Assembly: GCA_965113315.1 (NCBI GenBank)
Contig: OZ220377.1
Reading direction: 5' to 3' (one strand)
Length of the DNA stretch: 64,000 nt
Source: Podarcis vaucheri
Lineage: Eukaryota
Below are positions 35,475 through 36,190 of this stretch, in pieces; the stretch's first letter is position 1; each line of letters begins with the position of its first letter. Below the pieces are notes generated by a model that ran no database searches, was not told the DNA's origin, and saw nothing but the letters and a program-made list of their open reading frames with translations. A program made the translations under genes and the position numbers.

Positions 35475-36190
35475 GAAATAAAGACACATGACACCATTGT
35501 TTTAGGTTAATGGGCTAAAATTGGCCACAACTATATTGGTTACAGGTAAAGAGCGGTATTGGCTTAGGCATTGGTCCTATCGGACTATCCGGCTTCAGCC
35601 TGTTTGCTTGAAGACTGGGAAGGGTTAACACCAGCGGGGGGGGGGGCCTGCTGATGCACATCAACTAGGGACACCCCTGGGGTTACCACTCGGGGGCGTG
35701 CTTTAGGCCATGACCTCCATAGGCTTCGGACGAGGCCATGCCCCCCGGAATCCTTTACCGGACTACCCTTCAATATTTTGGGGAGATGATGGTGCTCCCC
35801 CCAACACGTCTACATAACAATAACCCTACCAATGCCTAACCGCCAAAACCAAAGGAGTTGTGACGATTTGCTACGAGGTAGGCGAAAAACCAAATGGCCG
35901 GTGCCAATTTGCCAAGTGGGAAAAAATCCTACCAGGCCCCTCTTAACGGTGACCAACCGAGGTCCATAGCAAGGTCAGAAGGGGAACCTCAAAGGGCGGG
36001 CGGGAAACAACAGCAGCTGCGCAGACCAAAGAGGGAGATCCCGGGGCCCGGCTTGCCTTAAATGAGGCAAGCCACACACCCTTCGCCAGCCGATTGGCTG
36101 GCTCAGGGGATGACACGGCCCTAGGATTCCCCTGATCGCGCGGGGGCTGGAAACCAGCCTCTGTGCGTGTGTTGGGGGCGTGAAGCCTGC
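35475..36190 (-). mobile_element. GC-rich retroelement terminal-repeat remnant (solo LTR-like; possibly DIRS/Ngaro-type) with promoter boxes, structured RNA domain and poly(A) signal
   Basis: Abrupt CpG-rich block; on the minus strand CCAAT (36093-36097), TTTAA box (~36059-36063), AATATA poly(A)-signal variant (35532-35537) and a GU-rich downstream element; no TSD or TG..CA ends seen. Family assignment is from recollection only. Confidence 0.55.
35868..35972 (-). other. Candidate structured RNA domain containing an ENE-like U-rich internal loop
   Basis: Minus strand: UUGCUAUG GACC-ucgguu-GGUC ... GGUAGG A UUUUUU CC...GG UUUUU CG CCUACC U CGUAGCAA; pairings checked by hand. Confidence 0.6.

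Follow-up and report, generated by a model that had tools for sequence, protein, structure and literature searches.

Full-length Ngaro retrotransposons have the arrangement A1...B1-A2-B2, in which the B copies are identical (PMC9210276; for example Xenopus DIRS-53_XT), and solo AB units also exist (PMC8547959). Because the poly(A) signal is present twice, copying of the B1-A2 junction requires read-through of its first occurrence; how the elements pass this first signal is not stated in the literature searched. A stand-alone unit composed of A2, a short unique spacer and B2 is SIRE of Trypanosoma cruzi VIPER (PMC6681497), which comes from another superfamily and host and is likened to the present element by unit layout, not by structure.

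In HIV-1, the polyA hairpin masks both copies of the signal, and the masking is lifted by an upstream element that only the used copy possesses (PMC2645353); HTLV-1 shows that 3'-end processing can make use of a long fold (PMC3694450). ENEs are listed in reviews for viruses, for MALAT1 and MEN-beta, and for plant, fungal, slime-mould and stickleback elements (PMC7583470, PMC13541005); Evade possesses a working ENE in the spacer ahead of its 3' LTR (PMC12501189). RNA structure and polyadenylation control are not described in the sections consulted of the Ngaro account (PMC9210276). In a literature search on Ngaro and DIRS elements that covered ENEs, triple helices, polyadenylation and RNA structure, no report of a signal-choosing or tail-shielding RNA module in these elements was among the papers listed; the tables of a 2016 survey of transposon ENEs may bear on this.

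Here, we analysed a minus-strand element in a window of Podarcis vaucheri DNA (the whole stretch of 64,000 nt, contig OZ220377.1). Its parts resemble known ones, namely the HIV-1 masking hairpin and the PAN and Evade ENEs; what appears new is their union in a tyrosine-recombinase element. Like HIV-1, the proposed arrangement has an AAUAAA masked by pairing, two identical signals and unique sequence upstream of the used copy (PMC2645353). Unlike in HIV-1, the predicted masking strand is ~320 nt distant and the domain that it closes is multibranched, and the upstream ENE-like hairpin has a predicted rival fold. With the ENEs of KSHV PAN and Arabidopsis Evade/Copia93 the hairpin shares a U-rich internal loop, short stems and adjoining G-C pairs, as well as a site just upstream of a terminal repeat with the poly(A) signal (PMC13541005, PMC12501189). 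It differs from Evade, which has four U tracts (PMC12501189), in being single-domain with a weak upper stem, and from both in being tied to a long-range duplex and a rival hairpin, the triple helix being putative here. The HTLV-1 Rex response element is likewise a fold of >200 nt that reshapes 3'-end processing distances (PMC3694450); it joins a distant signal to the downstream element, whereas in the present element these two lie side by side from the outset and it is the signal that the fold covers.

A likely solo Ngaro end antisense to NCAM1

The element (Table 1) is likely a decayed remnant, the solo 3' end of an Ngaro retrotransposon, a name first suggested by its end motifs. The assignment follows from a fitting layout, in which a promoter-like part precedes a part with the folded domain and the poly(A) signal. 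Ngaro and its solo AB units similarly present a multi-copy end with this succession, and ORFs are absent here as in a solo end. No second copy of the element was found in the 64,000-nt window, so the split direct repeats of Ngaro are not seen there. None of the 147 window frames of at least 80 aa matched Pfam families for gag, RT/RNase H or tyrosine recombinase. The lack of retroelement ORFs is expected for a solo end, and the copy is classed as no more than a likely remnant; since no Ngaro ORF or full-length copy was recovered, its assignment to the family is indirect. A protein-coding role was rejected, as two frames at 35943-36565 (173 and 196 aa), which overlap each other, have no Pfam match.

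Table 1 Features of the element and its surroundings (positions in the window)
Feature	Position	Strand	Remarks
Element	at least 36140 to ~35476	-	order: CCAAT, TATA-like, U-rich hairpin, folded domain, UGUA, hexamer, CA, GU-rich
A split-repeat part (promoter side) of the likely solo Ngaro end	35940..36140	-	A label presumed
CCAAT	36097-36093	-	motif reading
TATA-like site	36064-36058	-	motif reading
ENE-like hairpin	35877..35933	-	stem GGUAGG/CCUACC; facing U6 and U5 runs; CC/GG above
Rival local hairpin	35825..35882	-	CCUACC with GGUAGG at 35830-35825, plus inner stems
5' arm of duplex	35828..35864	-	H1 35864-35856, H2 35852-35847, H3 35843-35840, H4 35839-35828
Looped-out multibranched interior	35576..35827	-	predicted fold
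3' arm of duplex	35524..35575	-	H4 35575-35564, H3 35556-35553, H2 35541-35536, H1 35532-35524
Alternative-register strands	35850-35842 (5' arm) and 35563-35555 (3' arm)	-	9 nt
UGUA	35541..35544	-	directly upstream of hexamer; sequence
Poly(A) hexamer AAUAUA	35532..35537	-	3/6 bases paired in duplex (predicted)
CA, predicted cleavage dinucleotide	35511..35512	-	~20 nt past hexamer; sequence
GU/U-rich downstream element, likely B-repeat end	35476..35496	-	sequence; boundary presumed
NCAM1 Ig domain 1 exon	53122..53439	+	Pfam I-set E 9.4e-14; best PDB match NCAM1, E 5.7e-38

The family is dispersed and multi-copy: each RNA run placed 182-525 reads on 35300-36500, part of them on a neighbouring short repeat, and in two bulk runs nearly all were <95% alike. 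Multiple copies and a promoter-before-poly(A) layout were thus both found, yet neither is Ngaro-specific, and the present copy is probably inert, without current function. Rfam gave three weak matches in 30000-42000, none within the element. Near its 5' side, 36162-36179 forms an 18-nt inverted repeat (94%) with 36283-36300, and a short dispersed repeat, which we take to be probably a SINE end, lies just upstream at 36359-36411, with similar copies at 13217-13272 and 37620-37648. Weak mir-5408-like hairpins (E 0.12-0.13, far under the gathering score) at 31647-31728 and 32412-32495 on the plus strand are probably repeat-derived.

Reads of relatives align over 36038-36119 of the promoter-like part, with TATTTAA at 36064 in 49 of 51 X23 reads and 17 of 19 X24 reads; their source may be another family. 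At a loose end at 36055 (43 reads), promoter-part reads (36038-36103) run into differing sequence with an octamer-like word. Judged from the reads, the promoter part may be common to the element and another family. At the opposite end, the UGUA is presumably a CFIm-type motif, and the ~20 nt between hexamer and predicted cleavage site is the canonical spacing. An end similar to the GU/U-rich element was seen in 30 X24 reads beyond 35504.

The element is antisense to NCAM1, on the opposite strand ~17 kb upstream of the first Ig exon, beyond which further Ig-domain exons lie at 56385-56657 and 60044-60319 on the plus strand. From the usual structure of the gene, this position is probably an early NCAM1 intron.

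Pattern scans were also made for relatives in other collections. Twenty-two viral loci showed a likeness confined to the pattern and were set aside as chance matches; 120 of the ~150 viral loci from the scan served as controls, and no viral locus contained the ENE/arm junction pattern. The 49 metagenome loci had no BLAST similarity and were likewise regarded as chance matches, the three best-looking (L143, L161 and L162) lying behind an unrelated ORF of probable plant origin. None of the 47 prokaryote loci was similar to the element.

The long-range duplex at the 3' end

A preliminary description of this locus had proposed that nested complementary blocks fold the poly(A) signal back onto an ENE-like domain. 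All eight stretches read as given and in nested order, and the perfect 12-bp pair (H4) was confirmed as an inverted repeat with 252 nt between its arms. The duplex closes a domain of ~340 nt at the 3' end of the element. The long-range helices were borne out by the predicted fold of 35870-35490 (P 0.88-1.00 for H1, H2 and the core of H4): pair probabilities were 0.94-1.00 for H1, 0.88-0.98 for H2 (UUGGUU/AACCAA) and 0.96-0.99 for nine pairs of H4, with 0.36-0.75 at the helix ends. H3 (GCGG/CCGC) reached 0.66-0.67, with a competing register, UUGGC/GCCAA, at ~0.3.

The pairing was then compared with chance. The arm-to-arm duplex was predicted at -42.9 kcal/mol against -20.3 +/- 3.6 in shuffles, none of 2000 being as stable, and was equalled by 2 of 6366 same-spaced window pairs. 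Confident long-range pairs (P >0.8, span >240 nt) numbered 24, compared with a maximum of 20 in 150 shuffles. Perfect inverted repeats of at least 12 were present in 4 of 1000 dinucleotide shuffles versus 9 of 172 real window tiles. On folding of 35480-36040, the check put forward in the preliminary description, stability of the whole 561-nt stretch was not unusual (z -0.33). The duplex domain had a z-score of -2.84. On a loose measure, the best duplex anywhere, the window (-44) did not stand out from 119 unrelated motif-bearing phage loci (-31 +/- 8, lowest -56.5). The complementary strand retained 14 long-range pairs.

Relatives of the element were represented in four RNA runs. The arms and the U-rich hairpin were better covered by their reads than the enclosed interior, with a depth on arm bins of 1.44-2.28x that of the interior in all four runs. 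Three of the 24 loose ends listed (from 166) lie at the inner ends of H4, at 35828 (14 X21 reads) and 35574 (14 X22 and 35 X24 reads), indicating that the arms are shared by some families whose interiors differ; two listed loose ends break within the interior. None of 26 substitutions listed for 35505-35870 fell in the 62 helix positions (P 0.007), a count biased because the helices were defined from the present copy and 40 of 217 substitution entries were listed. Inside the interior, a second depth peak at 35669-35750 (minus strand), over a hairpin at ~35740-35712, suggests a conserved internal element.

By visual inspection, seven entries yielded five distinct 5'-arm read-outs. The two that reach H4 retain AGGCAUUGGU, exact UUGGUU occurs in none of the four covering H2, and GGYAUUGGY takes the place of the window's GGUUUUGGC in three. 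GGYAUUGGY could form 9 bp with GCCAAUACC of the window. In the present copy this register is 3.1 kcal/mol costlier, and it would place UGUA, together with the first half of the hexamer, in an open loop ~20 nt long. One read-out has CACAGC for CACAAC, a one-sided, pairing-preserving change, and the U.G pair in H1 is kept on the 5' side in all three that cover it. No phased two-sided compensatory change was seen in the relatives' reads, which do not include the 3' partners of the 5'-arm read-outs. From these read-outs, H1 and H4 look like the helices of the family and the middle (H2 and H3) looks variable. Within the folding model, the long-range duplex is real, beyond chance and a family-level RNA structure.

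Predicted masking of the poly(A) hexamer and a proposed folding switch

Three features had been overlooked in the preliminary description: the hexamer is covered by the duplex, it is worn, and a local hairpin competes with the duplex. The first two A's of the hexamer (35537-35532) lie in H2 and its last A in H1, with an unpaired probability of 0.02-0.11. Opening it was calculated to cost 3.3-4.0 kcal/mol, or 0.6 kcal/mol without the 5' arm; the cost at 99 AATAAA control sites in the window was 0.94 +/- 0.91, with a maximum of 3.73 kcal/mol. The duplex is predicted by the folding model to mask the hexamer partly in nascent RNA. The hexamer reads AAUAUA in the present copy versus AAUAAA in 137 of 138 reads of relatives. 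Position 35855, which faces 35533 (the A restored in those 137 reads), is U in 111 of 124 reads, adding a pair within the hexamer, and UUU stands opposite the hexamer's AAA in three of the five distinct 5'-arm read-outs.

The rival local hairpin holds the whole 5' arm and excludes both the ENE lower stem and the long-range duplex; it breaks the former because CCUACC (35882-35877) is the 3' strand of that stem. Its predicted stability of -22.5 kcal/mol (z -3.35) was reached in 3 of 1000 shuffles, and its formation depended on context. In transcripts starting at 35940 and ending before 35524, that is until GUUGUGGC is complete, it had a probability of 0.70-1.00, and the hexamer was open on emergence (P unpaired 0.96 at transcript end 35532). 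With starts at 35872 or later, where the spacer is absent, H4 reached 0.98-1.00 once its partner strand existed. With a start at 36140, H4 was already at 0.90-0.99 at ends 35560-35540 and the rival hairpin was ahead solely at 35580 and 35532. At equilibrium, the duplex was ahead by end 35524 in every context, with spacer or none, and hence any masking delay would be purely kinetic. These values refer to the present copy only; of the four read-outs reaching the rival hairpin, two contain GGUAAG, which weakens it, and two GGUGGG, which still pairs.

We propose that a folding switch biases which of two identical poly(A) signals is used and afterwards brings the tail to dock on the ENE-like loop, a reading to which we give an even chance. 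During synthesis of the spacer and 5' arm, this arm would be locked by the local hairpin, which would also break the ENE stem, and the hexamer would emerge open. Once GUUGUGGC has been made, the duplex is predicted to win, covering part of the hexamer and freeing CCUACC for the ENE stem. If the spacer is absent, the inner helix would form at once (P 0.99). At the internal B1, the signal would be masked early and read through, so that the B1-A2 junction is copied; at B2, the masking delay would let the signal be used. The tail might then form U.A-U triples in the U-rich loop.

The proposal draws on the duplex exceeding chance, the higher read depth of the arms over the interior, the loose ends at the inner ends of H4, the biased count of substitutions outside the helices, the opening cost of the hexamer, the stability of the rival hairpin and the restored pair inside the hexamer of relatives, as well as on the known layout of Ngaro ends and the parallels in HIV-1 and Evade. 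Against it stand the kinetic-only nature of the delay, the early H4 in transcripts from 36140, the GGUAAG read-outs, the lack of a phased change and the indirect family assignment, together with the behaviour of reads at the predicted cleavage site described below. Should the 5' arm lie in the spacer, the step at B1 fails as written, since masking would act at B2 only; B1 would then need another masking strand, and the view that the duplex solely docks the tail would gain.

Proposed tail docking and other readings of the fold

The ENE-like hairpin displays the single-domain features of an ENE, namely a U-rich internal loop, short stems and G-C pairs alongside (definition in PMC7583470, PMC13541005), with an upper stem that is weak in the present copy. 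It is the minimum-energy fold of the isolated 61-nt piece 35935-35875 (-18.1 kcal/mol, z -1.98); in longer contexts the probability of its lower stem is just 0.04-0.21. No Rfam match was obtained for it at E up to 1. Enforcing the stem in the processed RNA carries a penalty of 1.1 kcal/mol in a folding model that does not include triples, a cost that a triple helix could plausibly repay. A GGGC/GCCC helix joining the ENE and the duplex in one junction at the cut site was considered and dropped (P 0.00-0.16).

With cleavage near 35511, the outer helix would have the start of the tail 13 nt from one of its feet and the ENE-like stem 12 nt from the other. The proposed approach of the tail to within a few tens of nt of the U-rich loop is thus supported by prediction. 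Other points depart from the preliminary description: the hexamer reads AAUAUA and lies inside the duplex, and the ENE stem has a low probability in context. The closeness of the ends cannot serve as independent support for an ENE or a 3'-end protection module, as had been argued: the end-to-end distance is 10 steps here against a control median of 14, and 67 of 200 control tiles are equally close, so we rejected this argument as generic.

No poly(A) tail was present among the 24 of 166 loose ends listed from reads of relatives. Furthermore, read ends do not pile up near the predicted 35511 site, and the 30 X24 reads mentioned above pass 35504 in templated sequence, both of which weigh against the folding switch. 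Reads around 35511 originate outside the present copy, possibly from B1 or from transcripts of the host, and for that reason neither show nor refute the predicted poly(A) site.

Over the ENE-like hairpin itself, depth in one direction jumps to 130-185 at 35874-35955 in bulk runs X23 and X24, with a dominant loose end at 35885 (168 and 214 reads, respectively). This peak looks like a single abundant transcript with a relative's ENE-like hairpin; assuming a stranded library of the usual kind, its orientation is probably antisense to the element.

An alternative that we consider unlikely is that, in line with the preliminary description, the duplex is only a scaffold bringing the tail to the ENE-like loop, with its overlap of the hexamer incidental. 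The short linkers of 12 and 13 nt and the small cost of the ENE stem are what such a scaffold would display, the alternative 9-bp register would leave UGUA and half of the hexamer open, and a spacer-specific 5' arm would suit it best; however, closeness of the ends is generic, pairing reaches further into the hexamer in relatives, and no long-range helix is described for Evade in the sections consulted of PMC12501189. Another improbable reading gives the fold a role in replication rather than in 3'-end processing, whether in priming, in strand transfer from one B copy to another, in packaging or in the folding of single-stranded cDNA, and makes the U-rich hairpin a separate module or protein site. 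DIRS-order elements have single-stranded cDNA and a primer that is unknown, for which a 3' hairpin has been proposed (PMC7192593); to this can be added the 14 long-range pairs kept by the complementary strand. Yet the hexamer is where the outer helix ends, the 5' arm lies directly against the U-rich hairpin, and the H1 U.G pair kept on the 5' side suits, albeit weakly, the sense strand. Finally, it is very unlikely that repeated UUGG/CCAA words in a conserved repeat end simply pair without function: the variable H2 and H3, the missing phased change, the 9 of 172 tiles and the ordinary whole-region z-score would all agree with an unselected fold, but the 24 confident pairs exceed every one of the 150 shuffles and, on both strands of H4, the inner end marks a break in conservation.

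The folding switch can be extended to a bolder and rather unlikely model, in which vertebrate Ngaro ends are three-state co-transcriptional switches whose hairpin opens the signal, whose duplex masks it and whose ENE grips the tail, and in which solo ends or the A2 promoter also yield a PAN-like, intronless, polyadenylated ncRNA of ~520 nt. If true, such a switch would link the selection of the poly(A) site with protection of the tail, and ENEs would be extended to vertebrate tyrosine-recombinase elements. With a short RNA module for selecting the signal, and maybe for shielding the tail, it would make the question of how Ngaro elements read through their first signal accessible to reporters.
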